Source: an uncultured Ruminococcus sp. (GTDB taxonomy: Bacteria; Bacillota; Clostridia; Oscillospirales; Ruminococcaceae). Taken from it: DNA of 64,000 nt. The notes beneath the pieces were generated by a model. The model did no database searches. It saw nothing but the letters and a program-made list of their open reading frames with translations, and was not told the DNA's origin. The DNA lies in the NCBI GenBank assembly GCA_902762785.1, contig CACWPL010000015.1, positions 3,478 to 67,477 on the forward strand, in the 5' to 3' direction. The position numbers and the translations under genes were made by a program. Positions 1,726 to 9,372 of the stretch are shown piece by piece; within the stretch, counting starts at the first letter, position 1; every line of letters begins with the position of its first letter.

Positions 1726-4140
1726 ATGCCGGATAGCAGAAAAAAGACCGAGATGCTGCCGACCGTACCGCTGCGCGGTACCGTTGCGTTCCCGCACATG
1801 ATCATGCATTTCGACGTGGCAAGGGAAATGTCCGTCCAGGCTGTCGAGCAGGCGCTCGGGAACGACCGCCGTCTCTTCCTCGTGGCACAGCGCGATGTGT
1901 TCGAGGAGGAGCCGTCCGAGAAGGACCTCTACCAGATCGGTGTGGTCGCCGAGATCAAGCAGACCCTCCGCGGGCAGGACGAGACCGTCCGCGTCCTCGT
2001 CGAGGGACTGTACCGCGCCTTCGTCCGCAGCATCGAGACGGTGGACGGTGTCATGGTGAGCCAGGTCAAGCGCCTCAACGAGCCGGAGCCCGATCCTGCG
2101 GATTCCATCGACATCGAGGCCATGGTGCGCGCTGTCAAGGGCGTGTACGAGCGCTATGCCAAGCTGTTCCCGCGGATGCCCAAGGAGAATCTGATCTCCG
2201 TGATGTGCCAGGACGACCCGGTGCGTCTCTATGAGCAGATCGCGTTCAACACGATGTTCGACCATCACGACAAGCAGGAGCTCCTCGAGGAGAACTCCGT
2301 ATACGACCGTCTCCAGCACCTTTATGCGATCCTGACGCATGAGACGATGGTGCTCGAGATGGAGAAGGAGATCCACGACCTCACCCAGGAGAGCATCGAC
2401 CAGGGGCAGCGTGAATACTTCCTCCGCGAGCAGATGCGCATCATCGGCAACCAGCTCAAGGAGGAGACCGGCGAGGCGCCCGACGAGGACATCGAGTCCT
2501 ATATGGACCGCATCGACGCCCTCCCCGCGCCGGAGCAGGTCAAGGAGAAGCTGATGAAGGAGGCGTCCCGTCTCCGTCAGATGCCGCCTGCCTCGCAGGA
2601 GGCCTATGTCGTGACCAGCTACCTCGACACCGTGCTCGACCTCCCGTGGGAGGACCCGGAGCCGGAGAAGCTCGACCTCGAGAGCGTCGCCGAGGTGCTC
2701 GATGCGGACCACTACGGCCTCCAGAAGGTCAAGGAGCGCATCCTCGAGACGCTGGCCGTCCGCGTCCTCAACCCCGACCTGCGCGGACAGATCCTCTGCC
2801 TCGTGGGACCGCCCGGTATCGGCAAGAGCTCCGTGGCCAAGTCGGTCGCCGGGGCGATCGGACGCAGGTTCGCGCGCGTGTCGCTCGGCGGCGTGCGCGA
2901 CGAGGCCGACATCCGCGGTCACAGAAAGACCTACATCGGTGCCATGCCCGGCCGCATCATCGCGGCGCTCCAGGAGGCCGGCACCCGCGACCCGCTCATC
3001 CTACTTGACGAGCTCGACAAGATGGGCTACGACTACAAGGGCGACCCCTCCGCCGCCATGCTCGAGGTGCTCGATACCGAGCAGAACCACGCGTTCCGCG
3101 ACCACTACCTCGAGGTGCCCTTCGACCTGAGCAAGGTCATGTTCATCGCGACGGCGAACACGCTCGAGAACATCCCCGCGCCGCTGCGTGACCGTATGGA
3201 CATCCTCGAGCTGCCCAGCTACACGCGCGAGGAGAAGTTCCAGATCGCCGTGCGGCATCTGGTGGCCAAGCAGCGCGAGCAGCACGGCCTCACGCCCACG
3301 ATGATCCGCTTCGCCGATGAGGCCATCTACGAGATGATCGACGGCTACACCAAGGAGGCCGGCGTCCGCAATCTCGAGCGCACCATCGCGACCGTGTGCC
3401 GCAAGGTCGCCAAGACCATCGCGACCGGCGAGCGCAAGCGCGTGACCGTCAAGAAGAAGGACCTCAAGGGCTACCTCGGCATCCCGCGCTTCCTGCCGGA
3501 TGCCCAGAGCCGCAAGGACCAGGTCGGCGTCGTCAACGGCCTCGCCTGGACGTCGGTCGGCGGCGTGCTGATGCCGCTCGAGGCCGTCGTCATGGAGGGG
3601 AACGGCAAGGTGCTGGTGACGGGAAGCCTTGGCCAGGTGATGCAGGAGAGCGCCCAGCTCGCCGTCACCTACGCGCGCCTCGTGGCCGACCGCTACAAGA
3701 TCGACCCGGCGTTCCTGACCCGTTGTGACATCCATATCCACGCCCCGGAGGGCGCCGTCCCGAAGGACGGCCCGTCGGCCGGCGTGTCCCTCACGACCGC
3801 GCTGATCTCAGCGCTCTCGGGCATCCCCGTCCGCGCGGACGTGGCCATGACCGGCGAGGTCACGCTCCACGGCAAGGTCATGCCGATCGGCGGACTGCGT
3901 GAGAAGTCCATGGCCGCCTTCAAGGCCGGCATCAAGACGGTCATCATCCCGGAGGAGAACCGCGCCGACCTCGAGGAGGTCGATCCGGTGGTCAAGGAGA
4001 ACGTGACCTTCGTCCCGGTGACGGATCTGCGTCAGGTGCTCGACACGGCGCTCGCCGCCGACAAGCCCGTGCGCACGCCCGCCAACACCAAGCCGCGCAA
4101 GAAGGCTGCCGACCCGGCCAAGCCTGCGGCACGCGCGTGA
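1726..4140 (+). CDS. lon: Lon protease (LonA)
   Basis: LON N-domain, Walker A GPPGIGKSS, protease motif PKDGPSAG; start placed at ATG 1726 behind GGGAGG (track ORF begins 1687). Confidence 0.96.
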   Translation: MPDSRKKTEMLPTVPLRGTVAFPHMIMHFDVAREMSVQAVEQALGNDRRLFLVAQRDVFEEEPSEKDLYQIGVVAEIKQTLRGQDETVRVLVEGLYRAFVRSIETVDGVMVSQVKRLNEPEPDPADSIDIEAMVRAVKGVYERYAKLFPRMPKENLISVMCQDDPVRLYEQIAFNTMFDHHDKQELLEENSVYDRLQHLYAILTHETMVLEMEKEIHDLTQESIDQGQREYFLREQMRIIGNQLKEETGEAPDEDIESYMDRIDALPAPEQVKEKLMKEASRLRQMPPASQEAYVVTSYLDTVLDLPWEDPEPEKLDLESVAEVLDADHYGLQKVKERILETLAVRVLNPDLRGQILCLVGPPGIGKSSVAKSVAGAIGRRFARVSLGGVRDEADIRGHRKTYIGAMPGRIIAALQEAGTRDPLILLDELDKMGYDYKGDPSAAMLEVLDTEQNHAFRDHYLEVPFDLSKVMFIATANTLENIPAPLRDRMDILELPSYTREEKFQIAVRHLVAKQREQHGLTPTMIRFADEAIYEMIDGYTKEAGVRNLERTIATVCRKVAKTIATGERKRVTVKKKDLKGYLGIPRFLPDAQSRKDQVGVVNGLAWTSVGGVLMPLEAVVMEGNGKVLVTGSLGQVMQESAQLAVTYARLVADRYKIDPAFLTRCDIHIHAPEGAVPKDGPSAGVSLTTALISALSGIPVRADVAMTGEVTLHGKVMPIGGLREKSMAAFKAGIKTVIIPEENRADLEEVDPVVKENVTFVPVTDLRQVLDTALAADKPVRTPANTKPRKKAADPAKPAARA

Positions 4141-4150
4141 GGAGGCCGTC

Positions 4151-4798
4151 ATGCAGCTCCAGGACGCGTCGTTCGGCGCGGCATGCGGCAAGCTCTCGCA
4201 GCTCCCGAAGCCGGAGCGCATCGAGTTCGCCTTCATCGGACGGTCGAACGTGGGCAAGTCCACGCTCATCAACAAGCTGACCGGGCGCCGTTCGCTCGCG
4301 CGCGTCAGCGCCGTCCCGGGCAAGACCGCGACCATCAATTTCTATGACGTCGGTGACGCGTGGCTCGTGGATCTCCCGGGCTACGGCTACGCGAAGACGT
4401 CCAAGAGCGAGCAGCAGCGCCTCGCACGGCTCATCACGGGCTATCTGGCTGCCGACCGCGACATCCGTCTGGTCGTCCAGCTCATCGACATGCGCCACGC
4501 GCCCTCCAAGGACGACATCGCCATGATCGAGCGCCTGATCGACGAGGAGCTGCCGTTCATCATCGTGTTCACGAAGGCCGACAAGCTCGGCAAGCAGGAG
4601 CGCGAGCAGCGGATGGTAGCCTTCGCCGAGGAGATCCCGTGCTTCGAGGACATCCACTGCATCCCGTTCTCCGCCAAGACCGGCGAGGGCCGCGACGCGC
4701 TCGTCGACGTCCTGGAGGAGCTGGCAGAGGATGATGAGGACGATGAAGATGCGGACGACGAGGACGACACTGCCCCGTCCGATCCCGCAGAAGACTGA
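4151..4798 (+). CDS. engB: Ribosome-biogenesis GTPase EngB/YsxC with poly-acidic C-terminal tail
   Basis: G1 motif GRSNVGKST, DLPGYGY, TKADK; GGAGG RBS; lon-engB linkage typical of Firmicutes; tail EDDEDDEDADDEDD. Confidence 0.92.
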   Translation: MQLQDASFGAACGKLSQLPKPERIEFAFIGRSNVGKSTLINKLTGRRSLARVSAVPGKTATINFYDVGDAWLVDLPGYGYAKTSKSEQQRLARLITGYLAADRDIRLVVQLIDMRHAPSKDDIAMIERLIDEELPFIIVFTKADKLGKQEREQRMVAFAEEIPCFEDIHCIPFSAKTGEGRDALVDVLEELAEDDEDDEDADDEDDTAPSDPAED

Positions 4799-4799
4799 C

Positions 4800-4836
4800 G
4801 ATGCGCCCCCTGTACGATGGGTACAGGGGGCGCATC
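4800..4836 (+). terminator. Strong hairpin after engB (terminator-like, no U-tract)
   Basis: Perfect 16-bp stem GATGCGCCCCCTGTAC/GTACAGGGGGCGCATC with 5-nt loop; followed by CTTCTCC. Confidence 0.6.
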
Positions 4837-4903
4837 CTTCTCCGTCGGTCTCGTCCTTCCGACATCATTTTCTGATTTTCCAAAAAAAGATAGAAAAAAC
4901 CTC

Positions 4904-4932
4904 TTTACTTTTGCACGATAATGTGGTAAAAT
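4904..4932 (+). promoter_or_regulatory. Promoter upstream of yerC-like gene
   Basis: TTTACT, 17-nt spacer, TGg-TAAAAT extended -10 in an AT-rich intergenic block. Confidence 0.55.
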
Positions 4933-5005
4933 ATAAATAACGCAAGCATATGCCCGACCGCGTCCGGCCAGCGGACGCAGAATACTGCATCTGGAAGGAG
5001 TAGCC

Positions 5006-5347
5006 ATGAAACGAGGAAGATCCAAACCGACCGCCATCGACGAGCTCTATGAGGCGATCCTGTGCCTAGAGACCAAGGAGGAGTGCGCCGCGTTCTTTGA
5101 CGACATCTGCACGGTGCTCGAGCTCCAGACCATCTCGCAGCGTCTCCAGGTGGCCAAGATGCTCCGGGAGCATCATGTCTATGCCGACATCGTCTCCGCC
5201 ACCAGCGCGAGCACTGCGACCATCAGCCGCGTCAACCGCTCCCTCGGCACGGGGTACGAGATCGTGTTCGAGCGCATGAAGCAGCGCGGTACCTATGTCC
5301 CCGGCATCGCGGCCAACAGCGGCGAGGAGGACAATGACAACAAGTGA
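5006..5347 (+). CDS. TrpR-like YerC/YecD family DNA-binding protein
   Basis: 113 aa; ...LYEAILCLETKEECAAFFDDICTVLELQTISQRLQVAKML...ATISRVNRSL is the YerC/YecD signature. Confidence 0.85.
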   Translation: MKRGRSKPTAIDELYEAILCLETKEECAAFFDDICTVLELQTISQRLQVAKMLREHHVYADIVSATSASTATISRVNRSLGTGYEIVFERMKQRGTYVPGIAANSGEEDNDNK

Positions 5348-5480
5348 AGCCCCACATGTTGTCAAAGTCGCAGATTTGCCTGTTCCATGTGGTTTTTCGG
5401 CTTTTTTTCTAGGATATTATCTAAAAATGGCTGTATATGTGCCCTAAAAACTGTAGGAACGCCAGTTTTTCCGAAAAACC

Positions 5481-5509
5481 TTGACAAATCGCGACAAATC
5501 GTATATAAT
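5481..5509 (+). promoter_or_regulatory. Consensus sigma-A promoter for hup
   Basis: Exact TTGACA (5481-5486), 17 nt, exact TATAAT (5504-5509). Confidence 0.85.
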
Positions 5510-5546
5510 ACAAGTATATTAAAACTGGATTGGAGGATGTACCGAT

Positions 5547-5822
5547 ATGAAGAAGGCAGAATTGATTCAGGCTGTAGCAGAGAAGACCGGCAAGTCCAAG
5601 AAGGACGCTGGTGTTTTTGTTGACGCGATCTTCGAGAGCATCAAGGATGCACTCGTAGCTGGCGATAAGGTCACCCTGACCGGCTTCGGCGTGTTCGAGG
5701 TACGCGAGCGCGCTGCCAAGCAGTGCAAGAACCCCCGCACCCATCAGATGCAGGACGTTCCGGCTTGCAAGGCTCCGGCTTTCAAGGCTGGCAAGAACCT
5801 CAAGGAGGCCGTCAACAAGTAA
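5547..5822 (+). CDS. hup: Nucleoid protein HU
   Basis: 91 aa; MKKAELIQAVAEKTG...GFGVFEVRERAAKQCKNPRT...AFKAGKNLKEAVN; codons shifted to gct/ggt/gta/gtt (high-expression style). Confidence 0.97.
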   Translation: MKKAELIQAVAEKTGKSKKDAGVFVDAIFESIKDALVAGDKVTLTGFGVFEVRERAAKQCKNPRTHQMQDVPACKAPAFKAGKNLKEAVNK

Positions 5823-5850
5823 GTGCTCCCGCACATACAGACTGACACGA

Positions 5851-5890
5851 ACACCCTTTGCACCGCATGGCGCAAAGGGTGTGCCTTTTT
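5851..5890. terminator. Bidirectional terminator between hup and pflA
   Basis: ACACCCTTTGC...GCAAAGGGTGT stem followed by GCCTTTTT; lies between convergent genes. Confidence 0.8.
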
Positions 5891-5900
5891 CTATACGATA

Positions 5901-6650
5901 CTATTTCCCGTGACGCTCACGCAGTCCCTGCTTGAGGCCGCGCAGGATGACGGCGCGCGCCGCGCCTGCGGCCTCGGGGGTGACGGCTGGCGTATCGCCG
6001 AGGGGATAGGGGATGCCGAGCGCCTCGTACTTGCGGCGCCCCATGGTGTGATAGGGGAGGACGTCGAGCGCCTTGAGGTTCGGGAAGGCCGCGAGCCGGC
6101 GCCCGAGCGCGAGCTGCTCGTCCTCTCCGTCCGTCCACCCGGGGACGATGACGTGCCGTATCCAGAGCGGGACACCGAGGGCGGCCGTGCGTTCGGCAAA
6201 GGCGAGGACGGCCTCGTTGCTGTGGCCGGTGAGCGCGCGATGGCGTTCGGGGTCGATGTGCTTGATGTCGAGCATCACGAGGTCGGTGACGCGCAGGAGC
6301 GTGTCGAAGGCCTCCTGCTGCGCCGCGGTGTAGACGATGCCGGAGGTGTCCAGGCAGGTGTGGACCCCGGCGGCGTGCGCCTTCGTGAAGAGGGACGTGA
6401 GGAAGGGGAGCTGCGCCATCGGCTCGCCGCCGGTGGCTGTGATGCCGCCGGAGCGGTAGAAGGGACGGTTCCGCTCGAACTGCGCGAGCAGCGCGTCCTC
6501 CGTGACGGCAGTGCCGCCGTGAAAGTCCCAGGTGTCAGGATTGTGGCAATACAGGCAGCGCATGGGACATCCCTGGAAGAAGATGACGAACCGCACGCCC
6601 GGCCCGTCCACCGTGCCGAAGGACTCCGTGGAATGGATGTATCCGGTCAT
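5901..6650 (-). CDS. pflA: Pyruvate formate-lyase activating enzyme (radical SAM)
   Basis: 249 aa; IHSTESFGTVDGPGVRFVIFFQGCPMRCLYCHNPDTW (CxxxCxxC cluster motif). Confidence 0.96.
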   Translation of the reverse strand: MTGYIHSTESFGTVDGPGVRFVIFFQGCPMRCLYCHNPDTWDFHGGTAVTEDALLAQFERNRPFYRSGGITATGGEPMAQLPFLTSLFTKAHAAGVHTCLDTSGIVYTAAQQEAFDTLLRVTDLVMLDIKHIDPERHRALTGHSNEAVLAFAERTAALGVPLWIRHVIVPGWTDGEDEQLALGRRLAAFPNLKALDVLPYHTMGRRKYEALGIPYPLGDTPAVTPEAAGAARAVILRGLKQGLRERHGK

Positions 6651-6667
6651 AATGCCTCCTTGCGAGG

Positions 6668-6697
6668 ATGCCCCGTCAGCGTGGACTGACGGGGCAT
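6668..6697 (-). promoter_or_regulatory. Intercistronic stem-loop between the glycyl-radical module ORF and pflA
   Basis: Perfect 12-bp stem ATGCCCCGTCAG/CTGACGGGGCAT with 6-nt loop; on the sense strand it is followed by cctcgcAAGGAGGcattATG of pflA. Confidence 0.6.
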
Positions 6698-6703
6698 TTT
6701 GTA

Positions 6704-6952
6704 TCAGAACTTGTCGTGGAACGTGCGGGAGATGACGTCGTCCTGCTGCTCCTTGGTCAGCTTGATGAAGTTGACCGCATAGCCGGACACGCGAACGGTG
6801 AGCTGCGGGTAATTCTCGGGATGCTTCTGTGCATCCAGCAGCGTTTCGCGCGTGAACACGTTGACGTTCAGATGATGGCCGCCCTTCTGGACATAGCCGT
6901 CCAGGAGCTCTACCAGATTGTCGACCTGCTGCTCATTGTCTACAGTTGCCAT
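6704..6952 (-). CDS. Free-standing glycyl-radical domain protein (GrcA/YfiD-like, equals the PFL C-terminal module)
   Basis: 82 aa; [17 protein letters not shown]...[31 protein letters not shown] contains the RVSGYAV glycyl-radical loop; own GGAGG RBS 7 nt upstream of ATG. Confidence 0.9.
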
Positions 6953-6973
6953 AATGGTACCTCCTTATGTGGG

Positions 6974-7183
6974 TCAGTCGTCGTCCTCGGGATCCTCGCC
7001 GCCCAGGTTCGGGACAGCGCAGGGGCCGGGGCCGCTGCATTCAGTGCTGTTGACGGTCTGGACGCGCAGGGCATCACCGGGGGTGAGCCGGATGTGCTGC
7101 GTCCCCTGCTCACACAGGGAATCGAGCATATCGACCAGTGCGTCGAGATCCTGCTCCTGCGGATCAGTCGGCGTCGTCTTCAT
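6974..7183 (-). CDS. 69-aa ORF between pflB and the radical module; decayed radical-domain-like remnant or small hypothetical protein
   Basis: AGGAGG RBS 6 nt upstream; start overlaps the pflB 3' end by 20 nt in another frame; residues [21 protein letters not shown] parallel [21 protein letters not shown] of the next ORF; no catalytic Gly loop. Confidence 0.4.
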
Positions 7184-9290
7184 TGAGCGCCTCCTGGGTC
7201 AGGCGGTCGATGTCGAGGTCGCCCGCGAAGATCTTGGTGTTCTTGCCGAGAGCATCGGGGATGATGGAGAAGGTGTTCGAGATGCCGTCCTGTGCATGGC
7301 GGAACGGGAGCTTCGCCACGGAGGACAGGGACGCCACGGCGCCGTGGCTGTCGCGGCCGTGCATCGGGTTGGCGCCCGGTGCGAGCGGCACGCCCTGCTT
7401 GCGGCCGTCGGGGGTGTTGCCGGTCTTCTTGCCATAGACCACGTTCGAGGTGATGGTCAGGATGGACATGGTCGGCACGCTGTCGCGGTAGGTGTGGTGC
7501 TTGCGGATCTTGTCCATGAAGGTGCGGACGATGTTCACCGCGATCTGGTCGACACGGTCGTCGTCATTGCCGTACTTCGGGAAATCGCCCTCGATCTCGT
7601 AATCGACCACGACGTTCTTGGCGACGCCGGTGACATTGCCGGCACGGTCGCGGATCTCGATGTCCTGGCGGATGGGCTTGACCTTGGCGTACTTGATCGC
7701 GGAGAGCGAGTCGGCCACGACCGAGAGGCCGGCGATGCCGGTGGCGAAATAGCGCTTGACATCGCGGTCGTGCAGCGCCATCTGCACGCGCTCGTAGCTG
7801 TACTTGTCGTGCATGTAGTGGATGACGTTCAGGGTGTTGACGTAGAGGCCGGCGAGCCATTCCATCATGTCGTCGTACTTCTCCATGACGTCGTCATAGT
7901 CGAGATACTCGCCCTCGACCGGACGGTACTTCGGCCCGACCTGTACGCCCAGACGCTCGTCGACACCGCCGTTGATGGCGTAGAGCAGGCACTTGGCGAG
8001 GTTCGCGCGTGCGCCGAAGAACTGCATCTCCTTGCCGACGCGCATCGAGGACACACAGCACGCGATCGCGTAGTCATCGCCGTGGGTCACGCGCATGAGG
8101 TCGTCGTTTTCGTACTGGATCGAGCTGGACTTGATGGACATCCTCGCGCAGAAGCGCTTGAAATTGCGCGGCAGCCGGGTCGACCAGAGAATCGTCATGT
8201 TCGGCTCCGGCGCAGTGCCGAGGTCGTTGAGGGTGTTGAGGTAGCGGAAGGAGTTCTTGGTGACCATGTGCTGGCCGTCCACGGAGACGCCGCCGATGGA
8301 CTCGGTGACCCAGGTCGGATCGCCGGAGAACAAGGAATTGTACTCAGGCGTGCGGGCGAAGCGGACGAGACGCAGCTTCATGATGAAGTGGTCGATCAGC
8401 TCCTGCGCCTCACGCTCGGTGAGGATGCCGCGGTCGAGGTCACGCTGGATATAGATGTCGAGGAAGGACGACGTGCGGCCGAGGGACATGGCAGCGCCGT
8501 TCTGCTCCTTGACAGCGGCCAGATAGCCGAAATACAGCCACTGAACGGCCTCCTGCGCGTTCTTGGCAGGACGGGAGATGTCGAAGCCGTAGATCTCGCC
8601 GAGCTTCTTGAGGTCGCGCAGGGCGTTGATCTGCTCGGAGAGCTCCTCGCGCAGACGGATGTTCTTGGACGTCATGCGGACGAAGTGCGTGGCCTTCTGG
8701 TGCTCCTTGTCCTCGATCAGCATGTCGATGCCGTAGAGGGCGACGCGGCGATAGTCGCCGATGATGCGGCCGCGGCCGTAGGCATCGGGCAGGCCGGTAA
8801 GGATGGCGGCATGGCGCGCGAGCTTCATCTCGGGCGTGTAGGCATCGAAAACGGCCTGGTTATGGGTCTTGCGGTACTTCGTGAAGATCTCCACGACCTT
8901 AGGGTCGACCTCGTAGCCGTACTCACGGCAGGCCTGCTGCGCCATACGGATGCCGCCGAAGGGCTGCAGGCTGCGCTTGAAGGGCTTGTCCGTCTGGAGG
9001 CCGACGATCTTCTCGAGATCCTTGTTGAGATAGCCGGGGCCATGGGAGGTGATGGTGGAGATGATGGAGGTGTCCATATCGAGGACTCCGCCGGCCTCCC
9101 GCTCTTGCCGGGAGAGCTCCATGACCTGCTCCCAGAGCTTGGTGGTGGCTTCGGTGGGGCCTTCGAGGAAGCTCTCATCGCCGTCGTAGGGGGTGATGTT
9201 CTTTTGGATGAAATCGCGGACATTGACAGAGGTATTGCTCCATCTGCCGGGCGTGAAGCCCTCCCATTCCGGTGCAAATGATGTAAACAT
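7164..9290 (-). CDS. pflB: Formate C-acetyltransferase (pyruvate formate-lyase) large part, lacking the glycyl-radical C-terminal domain
   Basis: 708 aa; colinear with PFL ([16 protein letters not shown], active-site [37 protein letters not shown]), then a 25-aa acidic tail and TGA; no RVSGY loop. Confidence 0.93.
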
Positions 9291-9343: not shown

Positions 9344-9372
9344 ATCATACTACTTTTCGGCCACTTTGTCAA
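9344..9372 (-). promoter_or_regulatory. Promoter for the pfl operon
   Basis: Minus-strand TTGACA (9367-9372), 17 nt, TATGAT (9344-9349); leader contains CACACCG...CGGTGTG hairpin. Confidence 0.7.

Follow-up and report, generated by a model that had tools for sequence, protein, structure and literature searches.

The window analysed here, a 64,000-nucleotide stretch of an uncultured Ruminococcus sp. (contig CACWPL010000015.1 of assembly GCA_902762785.1), carries on its minus strand a set of genes for pyruvate formate-lyase (PFL) in which the enzyme is encoded in pieces. The genes can be read as one operon in the order pflB (core), mid, grcA3 and pflA (Table 1). As the order suggests, the catalytic core and the glycyl-radical domain of the enzyme lie in separate genes, with a small gene, called mid here, placed between them and the activase gene following them. 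A preliminary description of this locus, made from the letters alone, had listed pflB, an 82-residue open reading frame (ORF) and pflA on one strand, and the ORFs, motifs and coordinates given in it all check out. However, it had proposed a PFL of two polypeptides, and this count does not hold, as a third conserved small ORF (MID, 7183..6974) is present between the two pieces. Each of the ORFs has its own Shine-Dalgarno (SD) sequence and ATG. The stop codon of pflB, TGA, is at 7166..7164, and the start of mid overlaps the end of pflB by 20 nt in a different frame.

Table 1. Features of the split PFL locus, in order of transcription. Positions are those of the window; dN/dS is the ratio of nonsynonymous to synonymous substitution rates.
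Feature	Position	Strand	Basis or remark
Candidate sigma-A/sigma-70 promoter	9344..9372	-	TTGACA, 17 nt, TATGAT; 11/12 consensus matches; consensus only
pflB core without glycyl-radical domain, 708 residues	7164..9290	-	Stop included; TIGR01255 and PF02901 matches
Codons of the active-site pair Cys411-Cys412 (= E. coli C418/C419)	8055..8060	-	Alignment to PFL structures
Conserved C-terminal tail of PflB, residues 684-708	7167..7241	-	Motif in 34/35 class A loci
SD sequence AGGAGG of mid	7190..7195	-	6 nt 5' of the mid ATG, within the pflB coding sequence
mid, conserved 69-residue small protein	6974..7183	-	35 orthologues, profile homologies, dN/dS
SD sequence AAGGAGG of grcA3	6960..6966	-	7 nt 5' of the grcA3 ATG
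grcA3, free-standing 82-residue glycyl-radical domain	6704..6952	-	= E. coli PFL residues 677-759
Codon of Gly57, predicted radical site in RVSG57YAV (= E. coli PFL G734)	6782..6784	-	Alignment
Perfect 13-bp stem-loop, GC-rich, no U tract	6668..6697	-	3' of the grcA3 stop, 5' of the pflA ribosome-binding site
pflA, PFL activating enzyme, radical S-adenosylmethionine (SAM) protein, 249 residues	5901..6650	-	TIGR02493

The product of pflB follows a regular PFL up to the point where the radical domain should begin. It matches TIGR01255 with 1112 bits (cutoff 994) over model positions 1-664 of 744 and PF02901 with an E value of 3e-217, and it aligns to residues 7-680 of E. coli PFL (PDB 1h16). This bears out the earlier claim that PflB is colinear with PFL, active site included, and ends before the radical loop. 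The motif CCVS occupies residues 411-414, its cysteine pair is invariant in the PflB alignment, and every catalytic motif is retained. As expected of a PFL, the score is at the equivalog level, the active-site cysteines are adjacent and a cognate radical-SAM activase is encoded; the pflA product, whose gene lies directly downstream of grcA3, scores 279 bits against TIGR02493 (cutoff 232). The C-terminal RVSGYAV that a PFL should bear on the same polypeptide is absent, the tail being without RVSGY. Against the closest relative, a goat-abomasum Oscillospiraceae metagenome-assembled genome (MAG; L001) with a PflB identity of 94-95%, the dN/dS of pflB is 0.042, and the core is thus under strong purifying selection.

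After ...IIPDALGK, PflB continues for 25 residues before its stop. These had been described as unrelated residues; they are in fact conserved, as nearly all loci of the same architecture share the motif [VILM]F-x-G-[DE]-h-[DE]-h-[DEQ], and the longer tails found in other lineages and in PDB 38lb begin with it too. The region that encodes the tail holds, in addition, the ribosome-binding site and the start codon of mid. It was considered whether the tail could be a degenerate copy of the radical-domain strand, and this was rejected, as a profile-profile comparison of the tails with GrcA3 gave no match. An AlphaFold2 (AF2) model of PflB has a predicted local distance difference test (pLDDT) score of 73, falling below 50 in the C-terminal region 637-690 and standing at ~50 in the tail. 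Elsewhere in the protein, residues ~541-556 (window ~7620-7670, minus strand) hold a 14-residue insertion relative to E. coli PFL and PDB 38la, which AF2 places in a long beta-hairpin. It is variable in relatives, being found in some (PflB of ~700-708 residues) and not in others (~689 residues).

The 82-residue ORF resumes the PFL alignment where PflB leaves it, as had been noted along with its own ribosome-binding site. It covers model positions 662-743 of TIGR01255 (E 1.3e-28), and its alignment to E. coli PFL restarts at residue 677. The NCBIfam model NF038360 (GrcA3, rad_fix_GrcA3) recognizes it with 168.4 bits at a cutoff of 158. It stays below the cutoffs of the GrcA/YfiD model TIGR04365 (96.1 bits, cutoff 170), to which only residues 21-80 align at model positions 65-124, and of the GrcA2 model NF008341 (106.3 bits, cutoff 145). 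Gly57 of RVSG57YAV is invariant in the GrcA3 alignment and is predicted to bear the radical, and the dN/dS of grcA3 against L001 is 0.11. A protein search with GrcA3 gave at least 8000 relatives, of which the best 120 are mostly 79-83 residues long and 83-95% identical, and come from Oscillospiraceae, Ruminococcus, Lachnospiraceae and Christensenellales; the name 'GrcA3' is already attached to thousands of homologues of ~80 residues. The preliminary description had further held that this ORF is the only radical-bearing part and that the partnership is obligatory. The first statement stands for the operon and for the 64-kb window, in which no other PFL-like sequence was found, while the second is what we infer from the arrangement.

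The split layout is real and widespread. A genome scan, with one genome per species, revealed a GrcA3 relative in at least 592 species-representative genomes, and the best 80 loci were examined. In ~73 of these, including a cultured isolate, a truncated pflB is followed by grcA3; three are fused, two have an orphan grcA3 and two are cut by a contig end. Comparison with orthologous loci had been suggested as a check on the split, and it shows the split to be kept. Ruminococcus sp. YRD2003, a cultured isolate, and three independent assemblies share the three-ORF layout of the window, with products of 707, 70 and 79 residues. The loci can be sorted by what follows the core. Class A, the type of the window, has a short tail, MID and GrcA3. 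Class B has a long Cys-bearing tail, a gap of 10-80 nt and GrcA3, with pflA adjacent in 34 of 35 loci. In class 0 (Amygdalobacter, Breznakia and Traorella), PflB ends 1-3 residues past ALGK, at 664-670 residues, and there is no MID. Fused loci (L015, L040 and L054) encode a full-length PFL. The truncation point of PflB is identical across families. In a rough neighbour-joining tree built from the PflB cores, class A is intermingled with class B and the fused forms are nested within the two, and the tree, therefore, does not give the order of fission, fusion and deletion. One of the fused loci, L015 (2859-5243, in a Treponemataceae-labelled MAG), encodes a single PFL of 780 residues made of the core and a GrcA3-type radical domain. 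Its junction holds a ~40-residue insert with C-x2-C (...GNCMSCDTATIM...), and the gene is either a re-fusion of the split gene or an intermediate form.

Free-standing copies of grcA3 are also known from other settings. The two orphan genes, at 4992-5237 of L070 (a Lachnospiraceae MAG) and 5001-5243 of L080 (a Gastranaerophilales MAG), have no pflB within 5 kb and look like true spare-part genes; just 5' of the one in L070, there is an uncharacterized ORF of 233 residues. Among sequences labelled viral in IMG/VR (L087-L124, 70-420 kb), many hold GrcA3-type genes that stand by themselves, in most cases away from any pflB, and some of these genes adjoin a radical-SAM gene that is weakly PflA/NrdG-like. 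A truncated pflB is also present on the viral-labelled L096, L097 and L108. In the viral-labelled L112-L123 group, the GrcA3-type genes are without the PFL-like N-terminal helix and are reminiscent of T4 Y06I. In a transcriptome of Fannyhessea vaginae, grcA and pflB were among the most strongly co-downregulated genes, at about -18 and -14 as tabulated, which amounts to RNA-level co-regulation of a small radical-domain gene with pflB in a Gram-positive anaerobe (PMC11979175).

The middle gene is a regular part of class A loci. In all 35 of them, the spacer of 200-350 nt holds an open frame of 57-84 codons, which begins anywhere from a 20-nt overlap with pflB to ~100 nt downstream of it and is preceded by an SD-like sequence in 27. 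Among these 35 orthologues, Cys55 and Pro58 are invariant, and Asp21, Gly27, His30 and Ala54 nearly so. By profile search, 2159 MID clusters were obtained; those listed are of 66-81 residues, are called 'hypothetical protein' where named and have no Pfam domain. A HMMER search of 1.84 billion representatives gave 166 MID clusters, essentially all free-standing. A fusion of MID to PflB was looked for as well and was discarded, the profile searches having returned essentially only free-standing proteins of 50-130 residues. MID has no credible match in Pfam, NCBIfam or the PDB, and a likeness of its 'ACCxPTE' to BMP-2 was set aside as a chance motif match. The family is thus undescribed and unannotated.

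Profile comparison suggests where the two halves of MID come from. Residues 8-35 match residues 6-33 of GrcA3 (hhalign probability 90.9%, E 1.2e-6), a region that comprises the helix and the GGHHLNVNV strand, which is the tenth barrel strand in PFL; the homology is confined to this region, and the N-terminal half is thus a paralogue of this helix and strand of the radical domain. Residues 47-69 match the distal part of the long class B tails (95.8%, E 7.7e-9), whose consensus is DDxIFAGDIxVDxDCxxGACxxPTLFEGLD. This C-terminal half of MID bears the Cys motif C49...C55-x-x-P58-N (Cys-x5-Cys-x2-Pro) and an acidic end. Against PF01228, the MID of the window gives no match, and only 3 of the 35 orthologues reach an E value of 0.03. 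MID has no glycine at the position of the radical loop (RVxG[FWY]), none being conserved there in the 35 orthologues, and, therefore, cannot carry the radical. An AF2 model of MID alone has a helix at 13-25 and strands at 30-34 and 40-44, with a pLDDT of 60.

It can be asked whether MID belongs to the enzyme at all, or is a small gene without any relation to it, or else a remnant of the ancestral radical domain that has lost its function and stays open by chance or through the constraint of the overlap. Such a view would account for its fast evolution (59% identity to the closest orthologue, against 94-95% for PflB), for the many split-PFL lineages that lack it (classes B and 0) and for the low confidence of its AF2 model. 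Nevertheless, the overlap with pflB is limited to the first ~20 nt, and the frame is open in every class A locus with the Cys and Pro residues invariant and the Asp, Gly, His and Ala residues nearly so. The length is constant across the clusters, and the dN/dS is 0.38 against L001 and 0.05-0.40 in 12 further pairs. That the Cys motif is kept as the tail of PflB in class B argues further for a selected function at that position, and a chance or remnant frame is, on this evidence, unlikely.

A second line of evidence comes from the Protein Data Bank (PDB). The best PDB match of the window PflB, with 1141 bits, is 38la, which is a natural 666-residue PflB of Amygdalobacter nucleatus lacking the radical domain and is 100% identical to P0388; by tblastn, it is 73% identical to the window PflB. 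In the complete genome of this organism (CP118869.1; L086), positions 3703-7291 hold pflA, a thioredoxin-like gene (109 residues), pflB (666 residues) and a GrcA3-like gene (77 residues), the product of the last scoring 154 bits against NF038360, just under the cutoff. All 120 nearest homologues of this PflB are without the radical domain, and Amygdalobacter can be regarded, from its genes, as a second lineage with a split PFL. The genus is known to excrete formate (PMC11318147), and a split PFL is plausible because an organism with a 1.5-Mb genome and a class 0 operon does so. Unlike the window, Amygdalobacter has neither tail nor MID and has the thioredoxin-like gene in the operon instead, which gives a weak hint of thiol chemistry where the Cys tails or MID would otherwise stand. 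The related entry 38lb has a Cys-bearing tail (ALGKSGNVMFGECDMCEM..., compared up to residue 699) that resembles the tail of the window PflB. No GrcA3-like chain is present in the 38la and 38lb entries; their deposition implies that such enzymes are being studied.

Taken with the gene anatomy, these data point to an obligately multi-subunit PFL, in which GrcA3 would be the radical subunit and could be exchanged while MID would have an accessory part in docking or redox chemistry, and a probability of about 0.78 is given to this reading. The PFL polypeptide would have a natural break directly behind ...ALGK, at E. coli residue ~677. Of the ten barrel strands, the 708-residue core would provide nine, along with the Cys-Cys active site, and GrcA3 would supply in trans the helix, the tenth strand, the C-terminal helix and the finger that holds RVSG57YAV. 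PflA would take the hydrogen atom from Gly57 while GrcA3 is docked to the core or still free, and catalysis via Cys412/Cys411 would be started by the radical subunit once it is docked. With the radical glycine on the small subunit, damage by O2 would cost one protein of 82 residues and not an enzyme of 700, and the rationale offered earlier, a cheap replacement of the oxygen-labile module, is plausible. MID seems to be translationally coupled to pflB and joins a docking-type helix and strand to the Cys-x5-Cys-x2-Pro motif. It may be an accessory subunit at the mouth of the barrel, serving either as a placeholder or adaptor for the vacant slot of the radical domain or as a thiol-based guard of the radical site.

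The obligate character is argued from the fact that the conserved core is radical-incompetent alone, that GrcA3 corresponds to the missing 80 residues and that pflA is in the operon. A core under such purifying selection would have to work with GrcA3 in trans. It was shown that E. coli PFL(1-695) together with YfiD has wild-type activity once activated, and a split PFL is feasible because this engineered pair is active (PMC8683613). GrcA3 starts ~15 residues before the folded part of YfiD and so would offer a larger docking surface, as expected of a permanent subunit. Both position and homology would place MID and the Cys tails at the docking site of the radical domain. The gene anatomy, the homologies, the conservation and the selection are observed; the assembly in trans, the radical on Gly57, the exchangeability of GrcA3 and any role of MID are proposed from sequence comparison.

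Several points weigh against this reading. GrcA3 could still serve some other enzyme as a spare part and nothing more, the search for a second PFL having covered the 64-kb window. The orphan genes of L070 and L080 mean that the GrcA3 family is not exclusively an operon-linked subunit. The AF2 models of PflB and MID are uninformative on how the tail or MID might dock. Finally, class 0 has neither tail nor MID; both are, therefore, dispensable for a split PFL, and the role of MID is accessory at most.

The first of these points can be extended to a full alternative, in which GrcA3 has no more than the spare-part role known from E. coli, a full-length PFL lies elsewhere in the genome and the truncated pflB is auxiliary or decaying. 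The name of the NCBI family, 'autonomous glycyl radical cofactor', agrees with it, as do the orphan genes, the putatively phage-borne copies and the fused PFLs with nearly identical radical domains in related Lachnospiraceae (L040 and L054). An auxiliary or decaying pflB is, however, hard to reconcile with its low dN/dS and its intact catalytic motifs, with the same truncation point across families and with the conserved linkage to pflA in class B. Nor does a second PFL appear within the window. In Amygdalobacter, the nearest PflB homologues uniformly lack the radical domain, and a formate producer with so small a genome carries the split form. The spare-part explanation is, therefore, considered quite improbable.

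A more elaborate form of the multi-subunit reading can also be put forward, tentatively and with more doubt than belief. Here, the PFL of a large part of the gut and rumen Clostridia would be an obligate three-component system made of the core, of GrcA3 that is charged off the enzyme by PflA and swapped after O2 damage, and of a 'dummy' derived from the radical domain, namely MID or the Cys tail, which would occupy or gate the slot, its Cys pair quenching or protecting the radical site. If this is true, a phage-borne grcA3 would plug directly into the host core.

Another explanation is that a full-length PFL is restored from the pieces by programmed recoding, be it a frameshift, read-through or ribosome hopping. 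The overlap of pflB and mid within the operon and the single 780-residue ORF of L015, with its Cys-containing junction insert, would fit such a process. Between loci, however, the gap from pflB to grcA3 ranges from -17 to 346 nt and the relative frame of the two genes varies, the starts of mid are spread over the range given above, and both small ORFs have a strong SD sequence and an ATG. No conserved slippery context was found, and no Rfam family reached its gathering score in the locus or anywhere in the 64-kb window. Recoding is thus very improbable. The chance that a sequencing or assembly error, or a recent pseudogene, has broken one continuous pflB is negligible, and both are excluded by conservation and purifying selection: the frameshift-like 20-nt overlap in different frames is outweighed by an inserted ~285 nt that is not PFL sequence, by the same architecture in dozens of independent assemblies and isolates, by separate translation signals and purifying selection for all three pieces, and by the existence of a curated hidden Markov model for the small protein.

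Beyond the coding pieces, the stem-loop between grcA3 and pflA stands out. Its 81-nt context folds at -31 kcal/mol (z -4.08), and none of 200 shuffled sequences was as stable. It may possibly stabilize or attenuate the mRNA and thereby set the ratio of the structural genes to the activase. A convergent HU gene lies beyond pflA. The neighbours of the operon include genes that, from sequence recognition, resemble those of HU, YihA/EngB, a TrpR-like protein, SpoIIID and a ClpC-like ATPase, and the window has a GC content of 62.9%. These features agree with a high-GC member of the spore-former lineage of Clostridia (Oscillospiraceae).

The arrangement is less novel than it had seemed in the preliminary description, as GrcA3 is curated by NCBI, has thousands of homologues and is joined in the databases by the 38la structure. 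The small family and the structure are thus already known; the obligate-split reading and the MID family are undescribed. No description of GrcA3, of a natural split or truncated PFL, or of PDB 38la/38lb was found in the literature searched, and a 2026 review of glycyl radical enzymes describes spare-part proteins in no other role than that of rescuing full-length PFL (PMC13450708). Pipelines and metabolic models that require a full-length PFL may mis-score many Clostridia. No other glycyl radical enzyme is as widespread as PFL, which gives fermenters of the gut and rumen one of their main routes to formate and acetyl-CoA. A split PFL would also be a natural system in which to study how the radical domain leaves and re-enters the barrel during activation, a question that, to our knowledge, has been approached in E. 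coli only with engineered truncations. Further, both the MID family and the tails with cysteines point to an accessory function, so far unstudied, where the radical domain docks.

Small accessory subunits are not new among the glycyl radical enzymes. The beta and gamma subunits of benzylsuccinate synthase and the small subunit of 4-hydroxyphenylacetate decarboxylase are small, contain cysteines and are encoded in the same operon as the large subunit. In these multi-subunit enzymes, Fe-S clusters are bound by the small subunits, while the radical glycine remains part of the large one. MID differs from them in having only two to three cysteines and no detectable similarity in Pfam, NCBIfam or the PDB. 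The closest known parallel to GrcA3 is the E. coli pair of PFL and GrcA/YfiD, along with phage T4 Y06I, where a free-standing RVSGYAV domain is activated by the PFL activating enzyme and can complete a core that lacks the loop (PMC8683613; PMC13450708). The GrcA3 of the window does not have the disordered N-terminus of ~60 residues found in YfiD; it has a PFL-like helix (residues 5-21) instead, and its homology to YfiD begins only at residue 22. The name of NF038360 implies a repair cofactor and is silent on the truncated PflB partner and on MID. Unlike the E. coli gene, the grcA3 of the window is inside the pfl operon, together with mid and a conserved PflB tail. In E. coli, PFL is made at full length and GrcA rescues it after cleavage by O2, whereas in the window the core gene never encodes the domain; the radical domain as a separate, replaceable subunit would thus be the normal state of this operon-encoded enzyme.

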